Virus record (IMG/VR): IMGVR_UViG_2974580128_000001
DNA: 64,000 nucleotides
Reading direction: 5' to 3' (one strand)
Source of the DNA: a virus
Lineage: Duplodnaviria > Heunggongvirae > Uroviricota > Caudoviricetes > Herelleviridae
The notes under the pieces were generated by a model. The model searched no databases, was not told where the DNA came from, and saw nothing but the letters and a program-made list of their open reading frames with translations. Below are positions 6,516-55,801 of the stretch, piece by piece. Numbering within the stretch: the stretch's first letter is position 1; every line of letters begins with the position of its first letter. The translations under genes and the position numbers were made by a program.

Positions 6516-6704
6516 ATGGAAAATGTAAAAATTGCAATGAAAGCTATCCAAGAAGAAATAAACGAAACCACTCTAATTATAACGGCATATAAGAGACCGC
6601 CACAGTGGTTTATTGACCATCTAGACCGATTACAGAAAGCACACCTTTCACTACAAGACGTAGCAAGACAAATGCCAGAAATTACAGAAAGCGAGGTTAA
6701 CTAA
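6516..6704 (+). CDS. hypothetical early protein
   Basis: 62-aa ORF, RBS aagggac. Confidence 0.5.
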   Translation: MENVKIAMKAIQEEINETTLIITAYKRPPQWFIDHLDRLQKAHLSLQDVARQMPEITESEVN

Positions 6705-6706
6705 AA

Positions 6707-6973
6707 ATGAAATTAAAAGACTTTATCAAACTAGCAGAATCCAAAGGGGCTACACTAGAGGCATACAACGAGCTAGGAGGCTATGAACTGACTAGAGGGG
6801 ACATAGTAGACCAGAACCCCGTTTTAATTGCTTACATGCAAGGAGCTTACAGCGTAGAAATATCAAACAAGGAACTAGAAAACAAGGAACTATCGGAATT
6901 AGTATTTGTTTATAAGAATGTAAGTCTTATCTATCCAAATGAAAAAGAGTTATTTTCAGAACTAGGACTATAG
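6707..6973 (+). CDS. hypothetical early protein
   Basis: 88-aa ORF immediately following 6516..6704. Confidence 0.5.
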   Translation: MKLKDFIKLAESKGATLEAYNELGGYELTRGDIVDQNPVLIAYMQGAYSVEISNKELENKELSELVFVYKNVSLIYPNEKELFSELGL

Positions 6974-9086: not shown

Positions 9087-9605
9087 TTACTCTCCGCTTA
9101 AACAGTCTATGTCTATTCGAACCCTACTAATAGCTTTACCTAATAAGTTTAGCCCCTGCCATTGTTCTGGGTAGTTAATACGTAAGTCATCCGCTTTTAG
9201 ACCAACACCCCAAATCCTATCATAAGGACTAGCTTCAACAAATACTGTATCCTTCGGAAAGCTTAACAGAAAATCTAATAGCTCCTTATTCTGTGTAAAC
9301 TTATAAAAATTTCCATAGTAAACAATGCGTTCTCTAACAAGTTGCCATGCAGATTCATCGAAGTTCTTCACTTTTCTCCCCAATGCCTTTGCTTCTTTAG
9401 GTGTAGCAACTTGTAATATCTTACTTCCTGTCTCAAAATCACCAAAATAAATAGCTTTGTTATACATCATAAAATGTTCGCATGTAGGGAAAGATATGGT
9501 ACCTTCTAAGGCAGTGAATGATGCAGGATACCATTGAGATAAACATTCTTTTCCTATTTTATTTGGATTTTTAGTAGTATGTCCCCAAAAAGGCACAATA
9601 GCCAT
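9087..9605 (-). CDS. NADAR-domain (DUF1768 / YbiA-like) protein
   Basis: FWGH...FP(T/S)CEH(F/Y)...YNKA motifs typical of the NADAR/YbiA fold; 172 aa. Confidence 0.6.
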   Translation of the reverse strand: MAIVPFWGHTTKNPNKIGKECLSQWYPASFTALEGTISFPTCEHFMMYNKAIYFGDFETGSKILQVATPKEAKALGRKVKNFDESAWQLVRERIVYYGNFYKFTQNKELLDFLLSFPKDTVFVEASPYDRIWGVGLKADDLRINYPEQWQGLNLLGKAISRVRIDIDCLSGE

Positions 9606-10888: not shown

Positions 10889-12133
10889 CTATTTCGCTTT
10901 AAAATTGTAAACAGGCTTAACAATCTTTTGAATGTCTACTGTATCCTTGATTATTTCTTTGATTTCGTCAGCATCCTTGTATGCTTTTGGTGCTTCATCT
11001 AGTGTACTTTGAACAACAGATGTTGTATAAATACCAGACATTGTTTGTTTAAACTCGTCTAAGTCAAGTAATTCTTTTGCTTTAGAACGAGACAATACAC
11101 GTCCTGCTCCATGGGGTGCAGAATTATTCCAATCAGTGTTTCCTTTTCCTACACCGATGATAGAGCCTTCTTTCATGTTTAAAGGAATAACAAGTCTAAC
11201 ACCCTCCTGTGCATCTGTGGCACCTTTACGAATAGTGTTGGAATCTACATCAATATAATTATGAATAGAGTCAAATAAGTCAACTACAGTCCAACCCATG
11301 TTAGCAACAATCTTATCAATGATAGTTTTACGATTCATGTAAGCATAACGTTGTGCTAGTTGCATATCGTTTAAATAGTCATCCACTGCGGAACCTTCTA
11401 AGTATGGCAATTGTGGTTTAACATTGACAGCTTTAAAATTCTTAATAGCCTCTTGAATTTCTGACTGTCTGCCTTCTTGCTTAAGTGTTTCAATCATAGT
11501 TGCTAAACCTTTGTCATCACGTTCATGGTATAAATCCGCTTTCTTCTGGTGATATTGGGCTACTTTAAGTCCTAAAGAACGGGAACCTGTGTGAACTAAC
11601 AAGTAGTAATTGTTTTCGTCATCTTTACTTAATTCGATAAAATGATTTCCACCACCTAAAGTACCTAAAGACAAGGTAACACGTTCAATAAATGGTTCTT
11701 CTGTTGCACCTTTAAACGTCATAGATTCTAACATGTGCTTAATCGTATTCGGTACAGTAGGATGAAGTTCGTCCAAATTTTCTCTAATGTTAAACCCAGA
11801 AGGAACCACTTTGTTAATCACTGCATCCAATTTAGCCCATTCGGTATCTGTCGTGTCTTCTGGCTTTTCAATTTGAGCTACCATAATACCACAACCTACA
11901 TCTACGCCAACAATAGAGGGTACAACTCGATTGATACCATCTGGATAATGAATTGTTGTCCCAACTGTAGAACCTTTACCATAGTGTGCATCTGGCATAA
12001 TTCTAACAATGCCACCGTCTGTTACCGGTTCATTAATCATTGTTGTAACCTGACCGATAGTGCCTTCATCCACCGTGTTAATAAACATTTTCGCATCGGT
12101 ATACTTACCATTAAGTTCAATTAAGTTATTCAT
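10889..12133 (-). CDS. rtcB: RtcB-family RNA 3'-phosphate ligase
   Basis: 414 aa; GGGNHFIEL and HGAGR motifs characteristic of RtcB. Confidence 0.85.
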   Translation of the reverse strand: MNNLIELNGKYTDAKMFINTVDEGTIGQVTTMINEPVTDGGIVRIMPDAHYGKGSTVGTTIHYPDGINRVVPSIVGVDVGCGIMVAQIEKPEDTTDTEWAKLDAVINKVVPSGFNIRENLDELHPTVPNTIKHMLESMTFKGATEEPFIERVTLSLGTLGGGNHFIELSKDDENNYYLLVHTGSRSLGLKVAQYHQKKADLYHERDDKGLATMIETLKQEGRQSEIQEAIKNFKAVNVKPQLPYLEGSAVDDYLNDMQLAQRYAYMNRKTIIDKIVANMGWTVVDLFDSIHNYIDVDSNTIRKGATDAQEGVRLVIPLNMKEGSIIGVGKGNTDWNNSAPHGAGRVLSRSKAKELLDLDEFKQTMSGIYTTSVVQSTLDEAPKAYKDADEIKEIIKDTVDIQKIVKPVYNFKAK

Positions 12134-12314
12134 CAGTTTTCTCCCCCACTAATACTTTCTTCATCTTTTCATCTAGTCTCTGTATAATCTCTTGTTGTTC
12201 CTGAGCTAGCTTTGCATGGTGTTCACGCTGTTTTTTATATTTAGCATAAGCAAATAGTTCTTCTGTAGTTAGTTCTTCTAATTTACGTGTAAATGGTGTA
12301 GCTTCAAATTCCAT
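12126..12314 (-). CDS. small coiled-coil protein
   Basis: 62-aa ORF coupled to rtcB (ATG of rtcB overlaps its stop). Confidence 0.45.
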   Translation of the reverse strand: MEFEATPFTRKLEELTTEELFAYAKYKKQREHHAKLAQEQQEIIQRLDEKMKKVLVGEKTDE

Positions 12315-12402
12315 TACAAGTACCTCCTTGTTTTTTATACTTAAAGTATATCATGTAAGATAAAAAGAAGCAAGCAGTTTTTACACTACTTGCTATACTT
12401 TT

Positions 12403-13146
12403 TTAAACAAATTCTTCTCTTACTTCTCCCCAACTTTGGTCTGGGTCTGGTAAGCTAAAAGGTAGCTTATCCTGTTCTTCCTTAGATAAGCTCTGATAGC
12501 ATTTCTCGTGTACTGCAATGGTTCCAGAACTCCCCTGAGCAATAGGTAACATACTAATCAATTCCCGCATGGCTTCCCTAAACTTTTTATAGTCTTCGTC
12601 TTCATCGTTATCGACTAGGGCATACACATCGCATTCTGCTTTACGTGCATTTGCAATGTTTTCCTCGCTAGGAGCATCATAGAAATTTTTTCTTTGTAAT
12701 TCAAGATACTTGACTGCTTTAGTTAGTCTTTTAGCGTAGTTTTTAGCTATCGGGTCAACATCAATACCATTTTGTAAATACTCTACTAATTGATACTTCG
12801 CATCCCCTGATGAGATACCGAATAAAGATAAGTAACTTGTAGATAAAATATCTCCACTTGGAAGTATCCTGTTAGAACCAAAATGGTGAGAATCCACCCT
12901 ACCAAATTCGGAATCACATATTTCAGAATGGCTATTAGGGTTTGGGACACCATCTGTTGTATGGTCTTCCCCTCTATAGTTCTTATCTTCCACAACACCA
13001 CCATATTCATTGTAATGTCCAACCGTTTCTCCAATTAATTTTCCCTGTCTAACATGCTTTAACCGACAAAGTTCCCCACCATTAAAGCAGTCACCCACAA
13101 TCTGTGTATTGCATACTGGACAAATATAACCAAAACATCCCATCAT
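12403..13146 (-). CDS. hypothetical protein with N-terminal zinc ribbon
   Basis: 247 aa; CPVCN...C...C near the N-terminus. Confidence 0.55.
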   Translation of the reverse strand: MMGCFGYICPVCNTQIVGDCFNGGELCRLKHVRQGKLIGETVGHYNEYGGVVEDKNYRGEDHTTDGVPNPNSHSEICDSEFGRVDSHHFGSNRILPSGDILSTSYLSLFGISSGDAKYQLVEYLQNGIDVDPIAKNYAKRLTKAVKYLELQRKNFYDAPSEENIANARKAECDVYALVDNDEDEDYKKFREAMRELISMLPIAQGSSGTIAVHEKCYQSLSKEEQDKLPFSLPDPDQSWGEVREEFV

Positions 13147-13181
13147 TCTTCCTCCATTTTCTCTTTAATCATATCTAGCAC

Positions 13182-13829
13182 TTATTCTTTGTTGCGGTGC
13201 GGTATATTAAACAAATCAAGAATATCTTGTTCGATACGGTCTTGGTGCGCTCGTGCATTAATAACCTTATCATATTCGTTAACTAGTTCTGTGTATTTAA
13301 TCAAATCCTCTGGGCTTAGTTTATTTAAGTCCAAATCCTCTTTAGTAGGTACTGGTCTAAGACTGAAATAGTTTACACAGACAGTAACATCCTTACTTAC
13401 AGAACAGCGAATTTTGTCAAATACATCCAATTTTTCCAATTCGTCTGGTTGGTCAATATAAACATATATAGAAGGGATACCTTCTGGGTTCCATCTTATC
13501 TCATGTTCCGTCTCTGGGTATTTAACTTTCGCAATTACATACTTTCTGCCAACAGACACTACAGCAGAACCCGCAGTAGCATAATCGTTTCCTACCACCC
13601 AATCCTTAAAATCTTCAAGAGAACCTAAACCCGAAGGATAATGCTTAATCGTCAGCATAGGGTCAATTACTTCAACAACATCGCCTTCTCTAAATTTAAA
13701 AACATCAAATGTAATCGGTTCCCGATTAACCTCATAACCAAATTTTTTAGCAAAAAGCAAATCCCGAGAATAATCTTTTGCTTCATAATATCTCACAAAA
13801 TCAAAACAATTTTCAACTGATGCTCTCAT
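13182..13829 (-). CDS. hypothetical protein (coupled to the LarB-like gene)
   Basis: 215 aa; start overlaps the end of 13813..14571. Confidence 0.55.
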   Translation of the reverse strand: MRASVENCFDFVRYYEAKDYSRDLLFAKKFGYEVNREPITFDVFKFREGDVVEVIDPMLTIKHYPSGLGSLEDFKDWVVGNDYATAGSAVVSVGRKYVIAKVKYPETEHEIRWNPEGIPSIYVYIDQPDELEKLDVFDKIRCSVSKDVTVCVNYFSLRPVPTKEDLDLNKLSPEDLIKYTELVNEYDKVINARAHQDRIEQDILDLFNIPHRNKE

Positions 13830-14571
13830 GTCCTAACCCTCCCACAAGTTGAAGCTCTTCATTTTTAAAGAAGACTTCCCTAGCTTTCTCTATTTGTTCT
13901 AGTATACGTACAGCTTGTGATGCGCCACCAAAACCATTATTGATATTCACAACAGAAATACCAGAAGTGCAACTAGTTAGCGCAGTATTTAACGCTGTGT
14001 AACCATCTGCTGAAATACCGTAACCTGTTGAAGTTGGTACAGCAATAATAGGTAAATCAATTAAACCTGCAAGTACTACAGGTAGTGCTCCCTCAAAGCC
14101 TTGTACAGATACTACCGCATTACTCTTTGTAATAGCATCTGTAGAAGCCATTAGTTTTTTCAAGTCATTTACACCAATGTCATGAAACGACACAGGGACA
14201 TATCCATTTAAAAGTACGGTTAAGTAAGCTTCGTCTACGGTGTCTCTATCAGCTACACCCGCAGATGTAATTGCCACAGATAGGTCACTCTCTGTAGGGT
14301 TTGCACGATAAAACGCTGTCTGACTAGACTTGCAATACACAAAAGGGCTTCCTTCTCCCCAATTATCTACCCAATCTGGTTCCTCTAGTTCCTCTGCTTT
14401 TTCTATAATTTCCCCCCAAGAGAGAACCTGTGATGTTTCAAAAGGTAGTGCATAGAACACGTCTAAAGGTAATTTTGTTACCATGATATTTGTATCTGCG
14501 GGTACCTCTGCAATCTGACTGGCTAGTTCCTGTGCGGTTTTATTTCCACCAAATAGTGTACGTAATTTCAT
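13813..14571 (-). CDS. PurE-fold / LarB-like enzyme (AIR-carboxylase superfamily)
   Basis: C-terminal half aligns by eye with PurE (SAGxxD...VQGFEGALPVVLAGL...PIIAVPTSTG...GxxVVNINNGFGGA), plus a ~90-aa N-terminal domain; overall architecture is LarB-like. Confidence 0.5.
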   Translation of the reverse strand: MKLRTLFGGNKTAQELASQIAEVPADTNIMVTKLPLDVFYALPFETSQVLSWGEIIEKAEELEEPDWVDNWGEGSPFVYCKSSQTAFYRANPTESDLSVAITSAGVADRDTVDEAYLTVLLNGYVPVSFHDIGVNDLKKLMASTDAITKSNAVVSVQGFEGALPVVLAGLIDLPIIAVPTSTGYGISADGYTALNTALTSCTSGISVVNINNGFGGASQAVRILEQIEKAREVFFKNEELQLVGGLGHESIS

Positions 14572-14813
14572 TAGTTAATCTCCTCTAAAAATTTAGTTTT
14601 GTCTACTGGTTCTATCGTTCCATCTTCCTCGATTCCTTGAACTTTGAATAGTAAGAACTCTGGCATCGCACAGACAACAGCAGGGTCATATGCTGTTTCC
14701 GGGTCACATGCCATCTCAAACATGTTAGTGTCTTTGTTATAGAAAAAACATAAGTCCCCGATTCTTTCATCTGGGTATAAAAAGTCAGCAATGTAAAAAG
14801 CCATGTATTTCAT
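14571..14813 (-). CDS. hypothetical protein
   Basis: 80-aa ORF, ATGA-coupled. Confidence 0.45.
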   Translation of the reverse strand: MKYMAFYIADFLYPDERIGDLCFFYNKDTNMFEMACDPETAYDPAVVCAMPEFLLFKVQGIEEDGTIEPVDKTKFLEEIN

Positions 14814-14814
14814 A

Positions 14815-15183
14815 CTAGTTCCCTCCTGTTATTTTATTGTATAGTTTAGTAAGAAATCCAATCTTTTTATTGCTAGGTTCAGTTATCAACCATGTTATTG
14901 TTAGTGATTTAATTCGTGGAGCCAAAGCATTTTGCAGATAAGTTACATAGTCATTCTCTTGGACAGATACTGAATAGCCCTTTCCTATTAAAAATCGGTT
15001 AACTGCCTCTACCTCCTGCTTGTTAATATTAATGTCAGAGATAACACACCAGTATTGCCCTAGCTCCACTGCTTCCTTAATACTAGGTAGTACCTTATTT
15101 TTAATAAAGTCTACGGAATTTTGGACTAACATTTCCTGTTCTTTTTCAACAGTCTTATTATAAACCTCCTCTGCTGACATCAT
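14815..15183 (-). CDS. hypothetical protein
   Basis: 122-aa ORF. Confidence 0.5.
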   Translation of the reverse strand: MMSAEEVYNKTVEKEQEMLVQNSVDFIKNKVLPSIKEAVELGQYWCVISDININKQEVEAVNRFLIGKGYSVSVQENDYVTYLQNALAPRIKSLTITWLITEPSNKKIGFLTKLYNKITGGN

Positions 15184-16034
15184 TATGCACCAACTCCAAT
15201 TTCTTCATCTAGCTTTAAGGATTTAATCTTATTACTAAACATGTTAGCTTGCTCATTATAATGTAAAGCTAACAACATCTTAATGTTATTTTCAAACTCA
15301 GATGCTTTTGAATCCACATATGCTTCCCGCACTAGTGAATACATTGTGATGTTATCTTTACAGAATGCCCAAAGAGGCGTATCCAACTCACTTTTTAGCA
15401 CACGAGTTTTAAACAGACAGTCTGGCTCTTTGCTACGGTTCTCAATTTGCTTTTCTGTAATTTTCAAGTCTTCTTCTCGGATTTTCATTACACGAGTGGT
15501 ACATGTAAAGTCTCCTTCGGTTACTTCCGATGGTCTAACATCTACTCGTACACCAACTAAATATAAAGAATCCTCTCTTGAAATGTATACAGGTTCTATG
15601 TCCACAATCTTAGTGAATGGGCACTCGTAACCATTCTTAGCAAACCAATCTGTAATTAAGGACTGTAACTCATCTTGCTTATCCTCTGGAATCTCATCTG
15701 TTAGGTAGTAGTCCTCTGCAACTTCCCCAACTTCTTCATAGACCATCTCTTGTGTACGTTCCAAGAATGAATCAACATCTACAGGGAGATAAACCGGAGC
15801 CACTCTTCCAACTACAAAACTGTTGATTGGTTCTTCTGGTAGAAATCCTAAAATATCCTCTACGTGTTCCCAGATTTCTTCTACAAAAGTTTTCCCATTT
15901 CTAACGGCATCTACGGCTAGTTTACCTGCATGAATAGCCTCTTCCTTGGTATCGAAATAAGCACAAGCTCTCCAAACTTCTACATCTGTATCACTTGCAC
16001 ACATCCATTTTCCTACTAAAGACTCATTACTCAT
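15183..16034 (-). CDS. hypothetical protein
   Basis: 283-aa ORF, coupled. Confidence 0.55.
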   Translation of the reverse strand: MSNESLVGKWMCASDTDVEVWRACAYFDTKEEAIHAGKLAVDAVRNGKTFVEEIWEHVEDILGFLPEEPINSFVVGRVAPVYLPVDVDSFLERTQEMVYEEVGEVAEDYYLTDEIPEDKQDELQSLITDWFAKNGYECPFTKIVDIEPVYISREDSLYLVGVRVDVRPSEVTEGDFTCTTRVMKIREEDLKITEKQIENRSKEPDCLFKTRVLKSELDTPLWAFCKDNITMYSLVREAYVDSKASEFENNIKMLLALHYNEQANMFSNKIKSLKLDEEIGVGA

Positions 16035-16345
16035 TTTTTCTTTCCTCCCATTTTATCCTTATCTAGACCCCATATATGTGCCCATTTACGACAAAAGTGT
16101 TTATCATAATCTAAGTCCATACCGGTAGCACCTTCGAAGTCTTTAAACTCTTCATAAAATTCCGATTCTTTAAACTCATCCCACTTTTTCAATTCAACCA
16201 TCCTATACATGAGTTGGTCAAATTGATAGTCTGGTATTTTAATTGCATCTAATTCATAATACAGATAACTGTGTAGTAGTAAAGCACGCTCTGTCATATT
16301 TATAAAGGACAGGTTATCTAGTATAGTATTATTTACAACGGTCAC
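16031..16345 (-). CDS. hypothetical protein
   Basis: 104-aa ORF. Confidence 0.5.
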   Translation of the reverse strand: MTVVNNTILDNLSFINMTERALLLHSYLYYELDAIKIPDYQFDQLMYRMVELKKWDEFKESEFYEEFKDFEGATGMDLDYDKHFCRKWAHIWGLDKDKMGGKKK

Positions 16346-16348
16346 TTG

Positions 16349-16627
16349 TTACTCCCCCGGAATTGAAATTATTACTTCTATATCTAACACAGCCATAATC
16401 TTAAACAAGGACGGTAAGCTAATTACAGTTAACCCGTTTTCATATGTAGAAATGGCTTTTTGTGTAATGCCTGCCTTTGTAGCTAATGCACGTTGAGATA
16501 GACCTTGTTCTTCTCGTGCACTATGAATATAGCCTCGTAATGTATCAGATAAGGCACGTGTGTATTCTTCTGTATCATCCTTATTAACACCCAGTTCAGC
16601 AACTGTTTCGGTTAAATTGATTTTCAT
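16349..16627 (-). CDS. XRE-family helix-turn-helix transcriptional regulator
   Basis: GLSQRALATKAGITQKAISTYENG HTH motif; first gene after promoter at 16658-16686. Confidence 0.7.
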   Translation of the reverse strand: MKINLTETVAELGVNKDDTEEYTRALSDTLRGYIHSAREEQGLSQRALATKAGITQKAISTYENGLTVISLPSLFKIMAVLDIEVIISIPGE

Positions 16628-16657
16628 GTTTTCTCCTCCTTACCTTTCTATACTCAT

Positions 16658-16686
16658 AGTATATCAGATACCTTTCAGTACGTCAA
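16658..16686 (-). promoter_or_regulatory. minus-strand sigma-A-type promoter (TTGACG-17-TATACT)
   Basis: plus-strand text agtata...cgtcaacaac; member of the conserved (a)agtcaacac promoter family upstream of minus-strand genes. Confidence 0.55.
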
Positions 16687-16716
16687 CAACTTTAAATAAA
16701 AAAATCCTAGTAAATA

Positions 16717-17058
16717 CTAGGATTTTTTCTCTCTTTTTATTGCATCTGCGAGCATCTCACTAAAACAGGTTCCCCCATTATAGAAGGTAAACAAAAAGTT
16801 ATACATGTCTGGTTCACCCTCCACAGGAGTAAGTAAAGACACTTCATCATTATCTAAGATAGTTTGTTCGACCGCATGATAAAGGTCATCCTCTACTTTA
16901 ACGTAGCTATCATAATTCTCTTCTAAAAACCACTCCATGTCACTATCATAATAACTAGGTCGTTCTCCTCTACTTTGTGTAAACAAACTAACTACTTGAT
17001 ACTGTTCTACTTCTGTAAGCTTACGTACCTTGCCTACACGTGTTTCCATTTCTGACAT
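16717..17058 (-). CDS. hypothetical protein
   Basis: 113-aa ORF. Confidence 0.5.
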   Translation of the reverse strand: MSEMETRVGKVRKLTEVEQYQVVSLFTQSRGERPSYYDSDMEWFLEENYDSYVKVEDDLYHAVEQTILDNDEVSLLTPVEGEPDMYNFLFTFYNGGTCFSEMLADAIKREKKS

Positions 17059-21017: not shown

Positions 21018-21758
21018 CTAAGTATGTTTTTTCGGTACAAAATATTTCTCTTGGATATTACCGTCTTTATCTACAACAATACCATTTAACTGTCCGCCAT
21101 AGGCGCAAGCACCATCAATGTATATTGTACGGTCTCCTAAATAAATATCACAGTTATTACCTTTATGAAAGTTCACTGTAGGTGTATGTCCTACAATAAT
21201 AGTTTTACTTGTCTCGTTCTTTTGGAATGGATTTGGTCTAGTCCAAAGCATTTCATGTTCCTCTGCTGTTTTCCAGTCTGGCTGTCTCCATCTTGGGATA
21301 CCTCCATGCACAAATAGCACGTTACCGAACTCGTAGTAAGGTTCTAGGAGTTCCAAGGTGTCTTTTACATTAGAATTATTAAGAAGCTCTGTACGCAACG
21401 TTAGGGCGCTAAGAGAAGCTGTCTTAGTTCCTAGAATCGAATTAGCAGTCTCTTGACCTCCTTGATAATACCACACTGAGTATATCTCTTGCAAGTCCTC
21501 ATAATCTGGTTCTAATCTTAATGGGAAACTAAGGAAATCTAATAGCATTTGGTCATGGTTCCCTTTAATTGCTGTGCCACCAGAAGCCATATGTTCGTAA
21601 ACAAAACCTAGAACTTCTTTTGATTGGAGACCTCTGTCTACATAATCTCCTAAAAGAACCAATTCCTGTTCTTCACGATTCCAATTTTTTAATAACTCCA
21701 TAAACTCATCGTACATACCATGTATATCTGATACTACGAACGCTTTCTCTTTGCTCAT
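21018..21758 (-). CDS. calcineurin-like metallophosphoesterase (Ser/Thr phosphatase-like)
   Basis: DIHG...GDYVDRG...GNHD motifs. Confidence 0.75.
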   Translation of the reverse strand: MSKEKAFVVSDIHGMYDEFMELLKNWNREEQELVLLGDYVDRGLQSKEVLGFVYEHMASGGTAIKGNHDQMLLDFLSFPLRLEPDYEDLQEIYSVWYYQGGQETANSILGTKTASLSALTLRTELLNNSNVKDTLELLEPYYEFGNVLFVHGGIPRWRQPDWKTAEEHEMLWTRPNPFQKNETSKTIIVGHTPTVNFHKGNNCDIYLGDRTIYIDGACAYGGQLNGIVVDKDGNIQEKYFVPKKHT

Positions 21759-22015
21759 TAATCGTCCTCTACTTTCTCAAAATATCGAAAGAACGCATAC
21801 CAATCATATCGTTCAGTAACCTGCTTACTCTCGTGCATAAATACAAACTCAACGTATTTGTGTTTAACTGCATGAGGGTCTACTGGTTCCCAAGGAAGCC
21901 TGCGAGGATAATCGTAATAAACTTTTGTTGGAATGACTTCTCGCATTAACAATTTAGGGTACCGCTTTTTAGGACGGTACCTCTTTCCTAAAACATGTTC
22001 GTATGTCGGTCTCAT
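21758..22015 (-). CDS. hypothetical protein
   Basis: 85-aa ORF coupled between two phosphoesterase genes. Confidence 0.45.
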   Translation of the reverse strand: MRPTYEHVLGKRYRPKKRYPKLLMREVIPTKVYYDYPRRLPWEPVDPHAVKHKYVEFVFMHESKQVTERYDWYAFFRYFEKVEDD

Positions 22016-22620
22016 TCTATTGTACCATGTTTCGTATAAGTTAAGCCGGACTCGTTGAAATGCTTTTCCTTTTCTTCAATCAGGTCAATACACTCTTTAA
22101 TTGTGTATGGTGTCCCAAAAGGGTGTAAAGTTAATTCTGGTGAATCGACACCTACATTTAATAAGTTAGGTTCTTGATAAGCTATCTCATGAATATGTCC
22201 ATGTAAGTTTACTCGGTTTCCTCGGCTACCAATAATGAGTGGATAGTGTGTTAAATGGATGATTTTTCTTTCCTGCTTTAGTATTACGCCAACATCACTC
22301 CAGAATACTCGTTCACGTAATTCCTCATCCCGATTAATTGTTTTTAAAAGCTTGGTACTGTCGTGGTTTCCTTTAACCATGATAATGATACCGTTTAGCT
22401 TACGAAGAATCTCTAGAGTATCCTTTGGTTTCTGGTTCATAGCAAAGTCCCCTAGATGGTACACAGTGTCTTCCGGACGAACTCGTTTGTTCCATGTCTT
22501 GATTAAGTAATCGTTCATTTCGTCCACATCAGCAAACCTACGTCTTGTCTCTACAAAGCCATCTTCACCACAAATATTGTGGTGGTTGAAGTGCATGTCT
22601 GAAATTACATATGTTTTCAT
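22012..22620 (-). CDS. calcineurin-like metallophosphoesterase
   Basis: SDMHFNH...HLGDF...GNHD motifs. Confidence 0.7.
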   Translation of the reverse strand: MKTYVISDMHFNHHNICGEDGFVETRRRFADVDEMNDYLIKTWNKRVRPEDTVYHLGDFAMNQKPKDTLEILRKLNGIIIMVKGNHDSTKLLKTINRDEELRERVFWSDVGVILKQERKIIHLTHYPLIIGSRGNRVNLHGHIHEIAYQEPNLLNVGVDSPELTLHPFGTPYTIKECIDLIEEKEKHFNESGLTYTKHGTIE

Positions 22621-23192
22621 TCTAGCAACCCTCCCAATTCAAAGTTATCGAAACACTCTGCATTGTATACATTTTGAATGGCATTCCGATAGAACTCTAC
22701 AGTCTCTAGACTAACTGGGGTGAAGTTGTGTACATCTACTCCTACATTAAGTCCGTCACGTTTCACCTTTTGTTTTTCATGAATATGCCCAAATAAGCCA
22801 AAATAGCCATCTTTGATTTTATCTTCTGAATAACTCATATGGGAAGGCTCATGGACAAGAACTAATTTTTGGTCTACAAGAGTGACAATTTCTCCTTTTC
22901 TAACAAATTCAAAGTATTTTTCTTGTTCCGGAGTAATAAACCCACCTTTACCATCCCGTTCATAGTTACCAAATAATAAATGAATTTTACCTTTAAGCTG
23001 TTTAGCTACTTCGAAGTTACCGAAATCCCCTAAATGGTAAACAGTGTCTTCTTCATCTACAACATCGTTCCACCGTTCTATCATAGCTAAATCAGCATGT
23101 TCTACATTATCAAAATACATACCTCGCATAGAATATTTGAAAGTACGTTCTTGTCCAAAGTGTGTGTCGGACGTAAACCAAATCTTACTCAT
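22617..23192 (-). CDS. calcineurin-like metallophosphoesterase
   Basis: SDTHFG...HLGDFGN...GNYERD...GHIHE motifs. Confidence 0.65.
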   Translation of the reverse strand: MSKIWFTSDTHFGQERTFKYSMRGMYFDNVEHADLAMIERWNDVVDEEDTVYHLGDFGNFEVAKQLKGKIHLLFGNYERDGKGGFITPEQEKYFEFVRKGEIVTLVDQKLVLVHEPSHMSYSEDKIKDGYFGLFGHIHEKQKVKRDGLNVGVDVHNFTPVSLETVEFYRNAIQNVYNAECFDNFELGGLLE

Positions 23193-33605: not shown

Positions 33606-34349
33606 CTAGGCTAGCTCTTTATTTTTACCTTTGGTTAATTTACCACTTTCATCATACCACGCATAGATGGCAGTTACAACATTTGTTTGATATAAAACAT
33701 CTCTAATTGCAAACCAGTAGTTACCAGAACCGAAATCTAGTAAGAACCAGAAGAAGTTACTTGCAAACCATCCCCACCATGAAAAGTCAATTCGCATAAT
33801 CATTAAGAATTGAGATACGATTCCTAGCAAGTAAGCAATAATGTTACCCCAATACATGATGTTACCCATTAGGGAACCATCTGTAGTAAAGCCAATTTTA
33901 TCTCCGTACATAATTAAGACAATTAAACCTACAATTGTAAATGCTAAAGTAAATACTACCCAAAAAGCGTTCATCTTACCTACTTTAATACGCCCATCTT
34001 CATCTTGATTGGATTCTTTTGTCCACTCTTTTAACCCGATAATGTGTGTAATACCGTAGTAAATACCTGCAAAAGCCAAACCGAAATTCCCAAACATAGT
34101 ATTAATAATAATTTCACCAACGTTAGAACTAATACCTAAGATATTCCCCATTTTAGGATAACGGTCTGCTAAAGATACCACACAAGGTACACCTAAACAG
34201 TACGCTGTGATATAAAATAACCAGTTAGTTTTATCTGACCAGTCAGTGACAAACACCCCCACAACCAGTCCCAGTACCACCAAAGTGATTGCGTACTGTT
34301 TGCGCCACTTCCCATTAGCTAGTGAAATATTGTCCATAAATGTTTTCAT
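33606..34349 (-). CDS. pnuC: PnuC-like nicotinamide riboside transporter (copy 2)
   Basis: polytopic membrane protein with two PnuC-like repeats rich in W/Y (..SWWGWFASNFFW..AIYAWYDE); internal ATG chosen at 34349, overlapping the nadR-like stop. Confidence 0.5.
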   Translation of the reverse strand: MKTFMDNISLANGKWRKQYAITLVVLGLVVGVFVTDWSDKTNWLFYITAYCLGVPCVVSLADRYPKMGNILGISSNVGEIIINTMFGNFGLAFAGIYYGITHIIGLKEWTKESNQDEDGRIKVGKMNAFWVVFTLAFTIVGLIVLIMYGDKIGFTTDGSLMGNIMYWGNIIAYLLGIVSQFLMIMRIDFSWWGWFASNFFWFLLDFGSGNYWFAIRDVLYQTNVVTAIYAWYDESGKLTKGKNKELA

Positions 34350-34350
34350 A

Positions 34351-35478
34351 TTATTTCTCCTCCTTGTTAGTCCAAATTTCGTCCACATATAATTGCAATG
34401 TATCAACTGTAGTTCCTTCTAGGTACTTTTCGATAATTTTCTTGCAAAGTTCATAACGAGTTTCATAATCACTCGCAGTTACTTCCACATATGGGATATG
34501 ATTCTCTGCGTATAATTTCTTCAACAGGTTTTGGAAGTCTTGTCTACGTTTTTCATCACCGATTAAACGCATACCATCATCTACCCATTTAGTCGAATTA
34601 TCTAGCAAAATAACCAAGTCAAAGCGGTCATTGTCAATCTTATCTTGTACAGATGGATGGGGTTTTCCTTCATACGTAATACAAAAGGCTTGTGTAGCTA
34701 CGTAGTCTGTATCTGAAATAGTAAATCTATTAGCATTACGTCTTGCAAATCTAACATCTTGATAGTGACCATTAGCAATTGCTTGGTAGTCACTGTACTG
34801 TAACGCACTCTCATCTCCGCCTAATTCAAGTTCACAGTAGTTACGACCGTATTCCCAAACAGTCGTAGTAGCAAAGTAGTTACCTAGCTTATCTACCATC
34901 AAAGTTTTACCACTAGACTCTCCTCCTGCAATTACAATTGTAGGAGCCAATGCTTCCCGGCTAGCACGAGGTAGATAGTCCCAGTACTTAATAGGGTTGT
35001 TACGTACTTTTGTTGCACTAATGTTAACATTAGAACGCTCTGGGTCTACTAACGTAGTAGGACAGCCAAAGTATTTTTGGTACCCTTCCGCATCCTGTGG
35101 TTCACTTGAAAAGAAGGTTGCTTCTTCCCAATCAAAACCTCTTTCAGCCAACACACGATTACCTGTTACAGTCTCTTTCACAAGGTTTGCCCATGCTTCC
35201 CATCCGTTAGGATACTCTGGAATGCTTGATTCATCTACGAGTACAGGAATGATAATATCTCGTTGAACTTGAAAAGTCTTTTGAACAATTCGTAGTTTGT
35301 CTCGTGCTGTTAGTGGACGTTTCATGTTAGAATCCATGTATAAACGGTCATCTCTACTGTCTGAGTGGCTTACCACTACAACAAGAGTCTCTACTTGTGT
35401 GCTTGCTTTTTGAATCATATCTACATGTCCTTTGTGTAAGGGATAGAATTTCCCAACTACTACTCCGAACTTTTTCAT
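34351..35478 (-). CDS. nadR: bifunctional NMN adenylyltransferase / ribosylnicotinamide kinase (NadR-like)
   Basis: N-terminal GKFYPLHKGH (HxGH nucleotidyltransferase motif) and C-terminal P-loop GGESSGKT kinase domain. Confidence 0.75.
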   Translation of the reverse strand: MKKFGVVVGKFYPLHKGHVDMIQKASTQVETLVVVVSHSDSRDDRLYMDSNMKRPLTARDKLRIVQKTFQVQRDIIIPVLVDESSIPEYPNGWEAWANLVKETVTGNRVLAERGFDWEEATFFSSEPQDAEGYQKYFGCPTTLVDPERSNVNISATKVRNNPIKYWDYLPRASREALAPTIVIAGGESSGKTLMVDKLGNYFATTTVWEYGRNYCELELGGDESALQYSDYQAIANGHYQDVRFARRNANRFTISDTDYVATQAFCITYEGKPHPSVQDKIDNDRFDLVILLDNSTKWVDDGMRLIGDEKRRQDFQNLLKKLYAENHIPYVEVTASDYETRYELCKKIIEKYLEGTTVDTLQLYVDEIWTNKEEK

Positions 35479-37279: not shown

Positions 37280-37519
37280 TTATTTGTAAGAATTTTTTAT
37301 TTCTTTGATTTTTCCCATTTGTACGCCCGTAAAACTAATACCTGTAGATGTTTCTACGTAAGGTAATGAAGTTACGGACTTACTAACTAAATAATCTCTG
37401 GCTGTTGGGTCTTCATCAATGTTTCGTTCTTCAAAGAGAATTTTCTCCCCTTCAAGCATACGTTTCACGAATGTACACTGACCACAACCATTTTTTGAGT
37501 AGACTGTTACTTTAGGCAT
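37280..37519 (-). CDS. nrdH: NrdH/glutaredoxin-like redoxin
   Basis: 79 aa; CGQC active-site motif in a thioredoxin-fold context. Confidence 0.7.
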   Translation of the reverse strand: MPKVTVYSKNGCGQCTFVKRMLEGEKILFEERNIDEDPTARDYLVSKSVTSLPYVETSTGISFTGVQMGKIKEIKNSYK

Positions 37520-38276
37520 GAGGAACCTCCTTTTTAAACCATTTAGAGTTTGTAAATGCTAATACATCATTTGCTAGGTATAACATGTAAGTCAGCATTA
37601 GTACATAAACTGCATGTCCATGTAAAGCTGTTTGAATCCATAGAGCTACTGACATTAGTCCTTGGAAAGTCCAGAAGTAATATTGTGCTCTAAAGCCTTT
37701 CACACACAGTACAGCTCCAACTAAACCAATCATTGCACTTGTTGCATCTAAGAAAGCCTGCGGTGAATGTAAAACAACCGTATCTAATAAGTATAAAGCA
37801 ACCCAGAAAACAACAATAAGACCTAATGTTTTAAGCATGTGTACAGGTTGCATTTTACGAGGTTTCAAACCCTCATTCCATTGTTTAGAGAAGATGATAG
37901 GAATATCTAACAAAACAATATAAGCAGTTTGCATAATAATATCACTGTAGTTACCTGTTACAGTTGCTACACCGATTAATAGAATAGCAGAAATAAATCC
38001 TAAAATACCATTAATTGATTTACCCATTGTAATTGTTACAGTACATGTAAATCCAATAATTCCTGCAATTGTAGCAGTAAACCCTGTCATTGTTAACCCT
38101 TGACCTTGTAGCATAGGTAGAATAATACCGGTAAATACTTGGACTGCCATTCCGACAAACCATAATACACGAGCTGATTTATTCCAACCAGTTAAACCAT
38201 CTTTATAATATTCGTAAGTGAATAATTTTTCAATATTTCCTTTGTTATCTTTCCAAAACTTTTTTAACTTGTCCAT
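37512..38276 (-). CDS. pnuC: PnuC-like nicotinamide riboside transporter (copy 1)
   Basis: polytopic membrane protein; duplicated motif ..TGNYSDIIMQ...IFSKQW.. and ..NDVLAFTNSKWFKK resembling PnuC repeats. Confidence 0.5.
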   Translation of the reverse strand: MDKLKKFWKDNKGNIEKLFTYEYYKDGLTGWNKSARVLWFVGMAVQVFTGIILPMLQGQGLTMTGFTATIAGIIGFTCTVTITMGKSINGILGFISAILLIGVATVTGNYSDIIMQTAYIVLLDIPIIFSKQWNEGLKPRKMQPVHMLKTLGLIVVFWVALYLLDTVVLHSPQAFLDATSAMIGLVGAVLCVKGFRAQYYFWTFQGLMSVALWIQTALHGHAVYVLMLTYMLYLANDVLAFTNSKWFKKEVPHA

Positions 38277-49603: not shown

Positions 49604-49680
49604 AAATGGAACTGAGGGGAATCGAACCCCTGTGTTGACGTAGAACCATACAAAATTCTACGGGCGTAGTTACTAGTTTT
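49604..49680 (-). ncRNA. tRNA-like 3' fragment (T-arm AGGGGTTCGATTCCCCT plus CAGTTCCA) with no identifiable 5' half
   Basis: clear T-arm and acceptor-like 3' strand; upstream is a 6-bp stem CGTAGA/TCTACG with a 12-nt loop instead of canonical anticodon/D arms. Confidence 0.3.
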
Positions 49681-50186
49681 AATCTACATTAAGGCTACAA
49701 CTAATAACTGAAATTACCTTAACTGAGTGGTAAAGCCTCTCCTGAGTTATCCACTTTTACCTCAGCGTTGTCGGTTAATGAATCCTCTAGGTAGAACCGA
49801 CCCTAATCTAGAGGGGTAAGTGTGTAGCTAGTCTAAAACTAGGCTACAGCTAGTAATTCTTCGTTTTTAGCAGTTATATTTACTGCGATGATTAAGTCAT
49901 CACTCTGCCCGCTATTCATATACTTCTTACGCCAGTCGAAACCAAAACAGCCCCAACATAAGAATTTCTTTTGACTAACCCTACCCTTCCGGCAGGGTCT
50001 AATCAAAAGTATACAATTAAAAAATGAAAATGAGTTACGGAAAATGTAACGTCTCCACCACCGGACTATAAGGGTAAGTTGTTCCGGTCTTTAACCTAAG
50101 TACTTTACTTAAATCTAACAGGACAGTCTTCATTACGTAAACTACTTAACCATGTAAAACGTAAAGGTCAATTTCCGTTGACCTAA

Positions 50187-55098: not shown

Positions 55099-55801
55099 AG
55101 TAATACAAGTCTGGTTAAAAACTCAAAACTTAATAGATTAAGGGCTTTTCTTCCTGCTTCATATACACTCACTGCATTCGGTCACATACTCAGAGAGGCT
55201 GAACCATCGGGAGCTACCCAATAGCTTCTCTCTGCCTTTAATGTATGGTCTAGCACGGTGGCTAACAACGTTCACCTAAACATTCAGCATTAAAAGTATT
55301 ATTTTACATATAACCCATATGTCTTCTGTAATATTTTCATCCAACGCTGACTTAAGCTACTTGTACCAAGGTCTCTTGTTAAACCTGTATTTCTACAGTT
55401 CTCGTCAAAGGGAGTCTTTTGAGTTTTCCAAGGTCTGCCAAGCTTCTCACACTTCCACCTAACTTGGATTCTTTTCCACAGGAACGTCTATTGTATCCCC
55501 CAAGAGTCTTGTACCTTACAATCCATGTATACTCCACATAACGCTTAACTGATATTAGCTTTTACTAATAGTTACTCCTATGTTACCATAAGACCTACCT
55601 GCAACCCAAAGCACTATCGCACCTTCGGTTACATCCAGATTCACGCCACGTTATCCTAGCAAGCTGTTCAAACTTTCTGCACTAGGTTCAAAATCTATTA
55701 AGTTTTCAATTTTTAACCACTAACTTGTGGTGTAATACTAATATAGCATAACATTACAAAGTTGTAAACACCTTTTTGTAAGTTTTTTTGATTTTTTTTG
55801 A

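Follow-up and report, generated by a model that had tools for sequence, protein, structure and literature searches.

The stretch of DNA considered here, hereafter the window, covers 64,000 nucleotides (nt) of a virus of the family Herelleviridae (IMG/VR record IMGVR_UViG_2974580128_000001), and the present analysis deals with a block of ten genes at positions 10889-16627, one of which encodes a homologue of LarB that stands alone, i.e. away from any LarE or LarC. Over positions 10889-16800, the window is 100% identical, at identical coordinates, to Enterococcus phage EfV12-phi1 (Herelleviridae, Brockvirinae, Schiekvirus), which has a genome of 152 kb and Enterococcus faecium TX1330 as host, and ~30 related Enterococcus phages align to the same region at 85-98%. 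The ten open reading frames (ORFs) lie where an earlier note on this DNA had placed them, all on the minus strand, and agree with the deposited annotation of EfV12-phi1. From the upstream end, the features of the block are as follows.

16699..16728: terminator-like palindromic hairpin ending the upstream unit, with a 13-bp stem followed by a T run
16658..16686, minus strand: promoter-like TTGACG-17-TATACT with TG extension, followed by a strong ribosome-binding site (RBS), AAGGAGG; sigma-70-like, 10/12 consensus match
16349..16627, minus strand: XRE-family helix-turn-helix (HTH) protein of 92 amino acids (aa) (Pfam HTH_3, 3.4e-14; phrog_1373)
16031..16345, minus strand: stand-alone LigA domain Ia (Nlig-Ia), 104 aa, GTG start (Pfam PF22745; phrog_6466)
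15183..16034, minus strand: g283, with an N-terminal domain of phrog_1672; 4-nt overlap with the Nlig-Ia gene
14815..15183, minus strand: g122 (PHROG without function or no match)
14571..14813, minus strand: g80 (PHROG without function or no match)
13813..14571, minus strand: phage-clade LarB homologue, 252 aa (NCBIfam LarB, PDB, AF2/Foldseek)
13182..13829, minus strand: g215 (no family or PDB match)
12403..13146, minus strand: g247 (phrog_21779; Brockvirinae family)
12345..12394, minus strand: terminator-like hairpin (12394-12369), weak -35 TTGCTT (12373-12368) and extended -10 TGATATACT (12353-12345)
12126..12314, minus strand: g62, with an 8-nt overlap with rtcB
10889..12133, minus strand: canonical RtcB RNA ligase (Pfam RtcB, 1.1e-59)

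The 252-aa protein matches the NCBIfam model of LarB (NF033503) with an E value of 3.2e-46 and 157.6 bits over model positions 59-208 of 209, and the LarB of L. plantarum was the only match of a sequence search against the PDB (E 2.5e-28), residues 98-223 of the phage protein aligning with LarB residues 118-243. Besides, an AlphaFold (AF2) model built on 51 sequences, with a predicted local distance difference test (pLDDT) score of 86, was matched by Foldseek to the LarB structures 8soq/7mj0 with an E value of 1e-15 and a template modelling (TM) score of 0.85 (target-normalised) over ~220 columns. The domain arrangement put forward by the earlier note, that is an N-terminal domain followed by a domain of aminoimidazole ribonucleotide (AIR) carboxylase fold as in LarB, is thus borne out by the hidden Markov model (HMM), the PDB search and the structural comparison alike. 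At the residue level, Cys201, Glu160, Asp108 and Ala107 of the phage protein are equivalent to LarB Cys221, Glu180, Asp128 and Ser127, respectively, and neither catalytic residue, Cys or Glu, varies among the 51 aligned sequences. In LarB, Cys221 forms the C4 adduct and Glu180 abstracts the C5 proton, catalytic roles that were reportedly assigned by Rankin et al. in 2021. Regarding Ser127, the Ala present in the phage protein is also natural in many cellular LarBs, and an engineered L. plantarum LarB with the S127A substitution is active, has been used preparatively and favours the dicarboxylated product (PMC13524815); Ala at this position as a sign of inactivity was therefore ruled out. In a profile alignment, LarB His158-Arg159 fall on PurE His45-Arg46; with few exceptions, the members of the phage clade described below have Lys or Arg at the Arg159 position, and the His158 position is variable in this clade and in some cellular subgroups as well.

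Among 50,697 phage records, LarB was found only in Schiekvirus (25 records, at least 92% identity), Kochikohdavirus (nine records, ~72%) and two faecal fragments. In a collection of 5.8 billion proteins, a group is formed by the nearest relatives (P0002-P0030), 45-73% identical to the query over ~90% of its length, and beyond it the scores fall to cellular LarBs matching the C-terminal half only. The phage-type sequences have a signature in common, namely QGFE, N/D-x-x-x-K and no N-terminal extension, present in 29/29, together with a residue other than Thr at position 126 in 28/29, and this combination was met in 0 of ~90 cellular sequences. On such grounds, the phage LarBs can be regarded as a distinct, phage-only clade. 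No close relative was found in representative bacterial and archaeal genomes, where the best match is 37% identical and the top 80 are devoid of Lactobacillales; in the lack of a close cellular relative, a recent capture from the host was ruled out. Apart from this clade, the same collection holds a large group of short LarB relatives of 212 aa (P0048-P0116), without N-terminal extension, with Asp at Glu180 (AGMD) and Trp at His158, some of which lie on megabase-sized contigs that are probably cellular; they may represent another functionally divergent LarB subgroup.

The contexts of the P0002-P0030 group are all phage-like. They include a 97-kb Herelleviridae-like contig (L013), where LarB lies ~600 bp upstream of the anti-Gabija gene Gad2 and where NADAR is also present, as well as temperate siphophage contexts with integrase, repressor, ERF and terminase genes, one of them a prophage of Lactobacillus intestinalis. 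In one of the contexts (L108), LarB lies ~4.3 kb from a gene of the Sequestin family (PF21825) and, in a further one (L105), ~420 bp from a PnuC gene in divergent orientation and ~2.9 kb from a Nudix gene. With LarE and LarC queries taken from a control cellular cluster, larE-larB-larC1-larC2, and a search within 8 kb of LarB, LarE or LarC was detected at 52/80 cellular loci, or 28/44 of those with full flanks; neither was found in any of the ten independent phage contexts (Fisher p = 2e-4 vs. 28/44) or in the complete EfV12-phi1 genome. The ratio of nonsynonymous to synonymous substitution rates (dN/dS) is 0.07-0.13 for phage LarB, which is under purifying selection, and the protein is 73% identical between Schiekvirus and Kochikohdavirus, for 30-52% in the neighbours that both genera share.

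LarB is not the only protein of the block related to nicotinamide adenine dinucleotide (NAD+). The earlier note had held that the other proteins carry no recognisable motif, which is wrong for the 104-aa protein, as it corresponds to domain Ia of the DNA ligase LigA (PF22745; 69.5 bits for a cutoff of 27, 4e-19). Among the contacts with nicotinamide mononucleotide (NMN), in the residue numbering of E. coli LigA, Y22, D32 and D36 are retained, H23 is replaced by Y and Y35 by F, so that this Nlig-Ia protein is predicted to bind NAD+/NMN. The CDS start given in RefSeq, at 16192, cuts off the first half of the Ia domain, and the GTG at 16345, 3 nt past the XRE stop, restores the 104-aa protein as annotated in relatives. 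No ligase catalytic module is fused to it, nor does one appear elsewhere in the EfV12-phi1 genome, as far as the annotation goes. A set of 81 solo Nlig-Ia proteins has been described in phages, and a role in sensing NAD+ or in shielding it has been proposed for them (Iyer, Burroughs, Anantharaman and Aravind, 2022; PMC9503650). The adjoining g283 is made in its N-terminal ~150 aa of a small domain widespread in phages (phrog_1672; 116 representative clusters), without Pfam, PDB-sequence or PADLOC match; its close homologues are all at least 83% identical, with a dN/dS of 0.07-0.09. In Kochikohdavirus, a protein with a g283-like domain is present, without detectable Ia gene adjoining.

As the earlier note had pointed out, other NAD-related genes occur in this phage, namely those of a NADAR protein, a NadR-type enzyme and two PnuC transporters, to which Nlig-Ia can now be added. 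The NadR-type enzyme, which is devoid of HTH and combines NMNAT and RNK, adjoins one PnuC (33606-35478, minus strand), and the second PnuC lies at 37512-38276 (minus strand). Such a pair of PnuC and HTH-less NadR, known as NARP3, was described in 2026 in Enterobacteriaceae phages as a pathway that restores NAD+ from nicotinamide riboside and bypasses nicotinic acid adenine dinucleotide (NaAD) (PMC13464706); any functional link between the NARP3-type pair and LarB is putative. The gene of the NADAR-domain protein is found just downstream of rtcB, at 9087-9605 (minus strand; Pfam, 8.8e-47), and its product, labelled GTP cyclohydrolase II in RefSeq, has a further match to PDC-M42C, a candidate-defence model of PADLOC (6.8e-39). 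Upstream of the block, three calcineurin-like/metallophosphatase genes stand in tandem (21018-23192, minus strand), and three comparable genes are also found in L013, a large and unrelated phage contig; a 2026 preprint reports that phage phosphatases counter the NAD+ depletion mediated by RES.

Taken together, these data make it rather probable that the block is a stretch of a leftward early/accessory array carrying two separate NAD-linked accessory functions, that is Nlig-Ia on the one hand and, on the other hand, a solo LarB that would use NaAD or a related pyridine dinucleotide as substrate and alter the host pool. With Nlig-Ia, NADAR and PnuC plus NadR in the same genome, an accessory role of LarB directed at the NAD pool is the most coherent reading. 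The catalytic activity, substrate and physiological role of the phage enzyme are what we infer, and the course of events would be as follows. Cys201 would add to C4 of the pyridinium ring and Glu160 would remove the C5 proton, and the phosphoanhydride would be hydrolysed with release of AMP. By default, homology designates NaAD as the putative substrate, in which case the product would be pyridinium-3,5-dicarboxylate mononucleotide (P2CMN), or nicotinic acid mononucleotide if hydrolysis only takes place, along with AMP. Since the phage is devoid of LarE and LarC, it could not mature this product into the nickel-pincer cofactor, so that either the host would complete the cofactor or the reaction itself would matter, through the removal of NaAD or the production of the dicarboxylated nucleotide. 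The host pyridine-nucleotide pool would then be altered in the course of infection, e.g. drained of NaAD. Niacin salvage necessarily passes through NaAD as its last intermediate. The PnuC/NadR route of the phage would make NAD+ from nicotinamide riboside and bypass NaAD, and Nlig-Ia, as a predicted NAD+/NMN binder, would be translationally coupled to g283.

Several observations weigh against this reading of LarB. Its 157.6 bits are below the curated NCBI cutoff of 175, a shortfall explained by the missing or divergent N-terminus. Indeed, the phage protein is devoid of the N-terminal segment of ~55 residues (FAxxDHHRxxRxGxPE) conserved in cellular LarBs, which is absent from all the proteins of the phage clade but also from some short relatives outside it, so that the segment may not be essential. 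The LarB chains in the crystals have ~195-217 ordered residues, which may match the lack of the first ~55, and the phage protein appears to correspond to the ordered core of cellular LarB. A supply of the segment in trans by g80 or g122 was ruled out, as an HMM of the segment matched nothing in any phage locus, for 1.8e-21 in the cellular control. Besides, the surroundings of the active site are remodelled (T126 to V/I/L, A155-G156 to N-D/T and A177 to Q), with a different substrate or a loss of carboxylation as possible consequences. Moreover, no NARP3 genes were found in the flanks examined of the temperate Lactobacillus phages with LarB, and any benefit of the NaAD drain to the phage is hypothetical.

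This remodelling beside the active site, together with the loss of the N-terminal segment, is also what could be expected of a LarB fold turned to another function, namely a protein that would hydrolyse NAD+, NADP+ or NAD-capped RNA, or bind them covalently, without carboxylation, in counter-defence or RNA processing. The adduct of Cys221 with NAD+ in crystallised LarB (title of PDB 7mj1) would agree with such a function, as would the accessory-gene setting, with Gad2 ~600 bp away in L013 and the Sequestin-family gene ~4 kb away in L108, and the occurrence of RtcB, NADAR and phosphoesterases in the same arm. The case is purely inferential, however: the retention of the catalytic Glu and Cys fits ordinary LarB activity equally well, no PADLOC or anti-defence family was matched and no support was found in the literature, which leaves this reading unlikely, if worth keeping in view.

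Conversely, the phage LarB could be an auxiliary metabolic gene product that works as its cellular counterpart, feeding P2CMN to the LarE and LarC of the host and thereby boosting the nickel-pincer cofactor and a LarA-type racemase. All the hallmarks of LarB for carboxylation and hydrolysis are retained, an Ala in place of Ser127 shifts L. plantarum LarB towards the productive product (PMC13524815), and the hosts belong to the Lactobacillales, the order where the Lar system was discovered. Against such a supply stand the lack of any recent capture from the host (the best cellular match being 37% identical and the top 80 without Lactobacillales), the conserved signature that the phage clade has of its own, without the N-terminal segment, and the absence of any obvious gain for a lytic phage from the racemisation of 2-hydroxyacids. 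A cofactor supply to the host is accordingly rather improbable.

A different issue is whether the block works as a whole. The earlier note had seen in it a nine-gene operon encoding a multi-step pathway that would make or destroy a signal, or an immune second messenger, derived from pyridine nucleotides. The genes lie on the same strand at close spacing, with a promoter-like site upstream, two of the proteins (Nlig-Ia and LarB) are NAD-related, and g122, g80 and LarB are present or absent jointly within Schiekvirus. In a presence/absence matrix of the block genes over eight relatives, XRE, Nlig-Ia, g283 and g62 occur at every Schiekvirus locus examined, the XRE gene having a long form of 160 aa in some relatives, and g247 is missing only in EFP01. 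The trio g122, g80 and LarB is complete in TJE2, EFDG1, SHEF13 and EFP01 and absent in iF6, Porthos and SHEF16, with a LarB remnant in Porthos. The latter (L008, ~6700-6813), an ORF of 114 nt with 79% identity over 9% of the protein, is best taken as the scar of a deletion where g122-g80-LarB once stood. As the three phages without LarB have other lineage markers in common, e.g. the long form of XRE, the joint loss may go back to a single deletion and is then weak evidence of a functional tie.

For the other genes, the content of the block within Schiekvirus is mosaic. The highly variable g215 is swapped or lost independently of LarB; RtcB is absent in iF6, Porthos and SHEF13, and RtcB and NADAR each vary independently, also of LarB, as does g247. 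In the sister genus Kochikohdavirus, LarB is an isolated gene between intergenic gaps, with the g283, g62 and g247 homologues ~8 kb away and no g80 or g122. When all the block proteins were searched by tblastn against the distant LarB contexts, only LarB was recovered, plus NADAR in two large phages. The co-occurrence of the gene set in other phages, a check that the earlier note had proposed, thus turned out negative: no neighbour accompanies LarB outside Schiekvirus, as shown by Kochikohdavirus and eight further phage contexts.

The packing of the genes is of little help either. From rtcB upward, the junction distances are -8, +88, +35, -17, -1, +1, -1, -4 and +3 nt, so that the dense packing with overlaps noticed earlier holds for 7/9 junctions, which overlap or are at most 3 nt apart, and fails for g215/g247 (35 nt) and g247/g62 (88 nt). 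In the rest of the leftward array (7.7-45 kb), 22/56 junctions are at most 3 nt (Fisher p = 0.066 vs. 7/9 in the block); dense packing is therefore only weakly distinctive of the block and typical of the whole array, of which it is the norm. The promoter claimed at 16658-16686 upstream of the XRE gene agrees with expectation at the consensus level only. In the 88-nt gap between g247 and g62, the hairpin overlaps TTGCTT, followed by a 17-nt spacer, TGATATACT and an RBS, and this extended -10 is identical to that upstream of the XRE gene. The hairpin and promoter-like site delineate two putative transcription units, i.e. from XRE to g247 and from g62-rtcB onward, and g62 and RtcB probably form a unit separate from the genes upstream. 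No riboswitch or other RNA element was detected in the block at Rfam gathering thresholds. Regarding the molecule invoked, the known Thoeris-type signals derived from ADP-ribose (ADPR) have no pyridinium ring, which makes them unlikely substrates for Cys-C4 chemistry. With a gene content so mosaic, LarB alone recurring elsewhere and the block split by an internal hairpin and promoter-like site, a single pathway across its genes is highly improbable.

Finally, that the 252-aa protein is PurE, the N5-carboxyaminoimidazole ribonucleotide mutase of purine synthesis, as a weak match to the Pfam AIRC family and the AIR carboxylase names of older database labels might suggest, is practically excluded by the HMM scores (28.2 bits for a cutoff of 30 with PF00731; 14.7 for a cutoff of 149.6 with TIGR01162 purE), by Foldseek (E 1e-6 and TM ~0.46 to PurE structures vs. 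0.85 to LarB) and by the loss of the catalytic His45 of PurE (SAHR motif), whose position is Lys or variable, along with the presence of the LarB-specific Cys and the lack of purine-biosynthesis genes nearby, a canonical PurE amid such genes being what the earlier note had set against its own idea.

The remaining proteins of the block bring few clues. For g122, g80, g215 and g62, only PHROGs without assigned function were matched, or nothing, g215 in particular having neither a family nor a PDB match, and g122 is fast-evolving (46-95% aa identity, dN/dS 0.22-0.37). In the alignment of the g247 family, C9, C12, H31, H213 and C216 are invariant, as is a D-P-x-Q motif, and almost no variation is seen at C27, H44 and H73; a variable helical insert stands between these Cys/His residues, in a pattern that suggests a metal site; the AF2 model (pLDDT 91) gave no informative fold match, and the PHROG label of minor head protein was found to be without support. 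Neither LarB nor the uncharacterised proteins of the block matched a defence or anti-defence model in PADLOC. Away from the block, two RNAs missing from RefSeq were recovered in the window, namely a full-length ROOL RNA at 55124-55710 (minus strand; RF03087, 260 bits for a gathering score of 99), inside a tRNA cluster and not in the feature table, and an unannotated phage-encoded transfer-messenger RNA at 49604-49954 (minus strand; RF00023, 122 bits, E 2.5e-47), adjoining a homing endonuclease gene.

It has lately become apparent that NAD+ metabolism is one of the chief grounds on which phages and bacterial immune systems confront each other. To our knowledge, the one role described for LarB is to open the biosynthesis of the nickel-pincer cofactor, and its gene normally occurs together with those of LarE and LarC; a phage-only lineage of LarB that is conserved, under selection and always devoid of these partners implies a use of this unusual pyridinium chemistry that is yet to be described. 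Going one step beyond the solo LarB acting on the host pool, a bolder proposal, tentative at this stage, is that phages of Lactobacillales recruited and streamlined LarB as a stand-alone weapon of NAD conflict. Through the rare attack of its cysteine on a pyridinium ring, the enzyme would break down NaAD or some other pyridine dinucleotide, or turn it into something else, and thereby cut the niacin salvage of the host or yield a dicarboxylated nucleotide serving as inhibitor or decoy, the phage relying on its own nicotinamide riboside route. Were this to be true, it would amount to a new class of phage effectors of NAD metabolism and to the first role of LarB outside the synthesis of the nickel-pincer cofactor. 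The LarB label, or older synonyms, already appears in several GenBank records, and solo Nlig-Ia proteins have been published; a streamlined phage LarB clade that spans lytic phages of Enterococcus and temperate ones of Lactobacillus, is under purifying selection and never has LarE/LarC alongside could not be found in the literature, nor could any publication that connects counter-defence in phages with LarB or with PurE-like proteins. Besides offering a testable lead into the NAD-centred conflict between phage and host, the analysis corrects misleading database labels, i.e. circadian phase modifier, AIR carboxylase, DNA ligase and minor head protein. Since Enterococcus phages are of therapeutic interest, whether LarB affects host range is also a practical matter.

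Compared with known systems, the C-terminal domain of phage LarB has in common with class I PurE the flavodoxin-like AIR-carboxylase fold, and differs from it by the extra N-terminal domain and by Cys/Glu chemistry instead of His45. Like the solo Nlig-Ia proteins already reported (PMC9503650), the 104-aa protein is free-standing, with NMN-contact residues kept or conservatively replaced; unlike them, it is always followed within Schiekvirus by g283, with the 4-nt overlap, an association not found in that report. As in NARP3, EfV12-phi1 carries an HTH-less NMNAT plus RNK enzyme beside a PnuC transporter, but the pair lies ~20 kb from the block, outside it, and in an Enterococcus phage rather than in Enterobacteriaceae phages. 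As for cellular LarB, the two-domain fold is shared (TM 0.85 over ~220 columns, 33% identity), and the equivalents of Cys221, Glu180 and Asp128 as well as the PTSxGYG and NGFG motifs are retained, whereas AGME/AGFE/AGMD stand in the cellular enzymes where the phage clade has QGFE, an AG(I/L)HR-type motif where it has N/D-x-x-x-K, and T126 where it has V/I/L.

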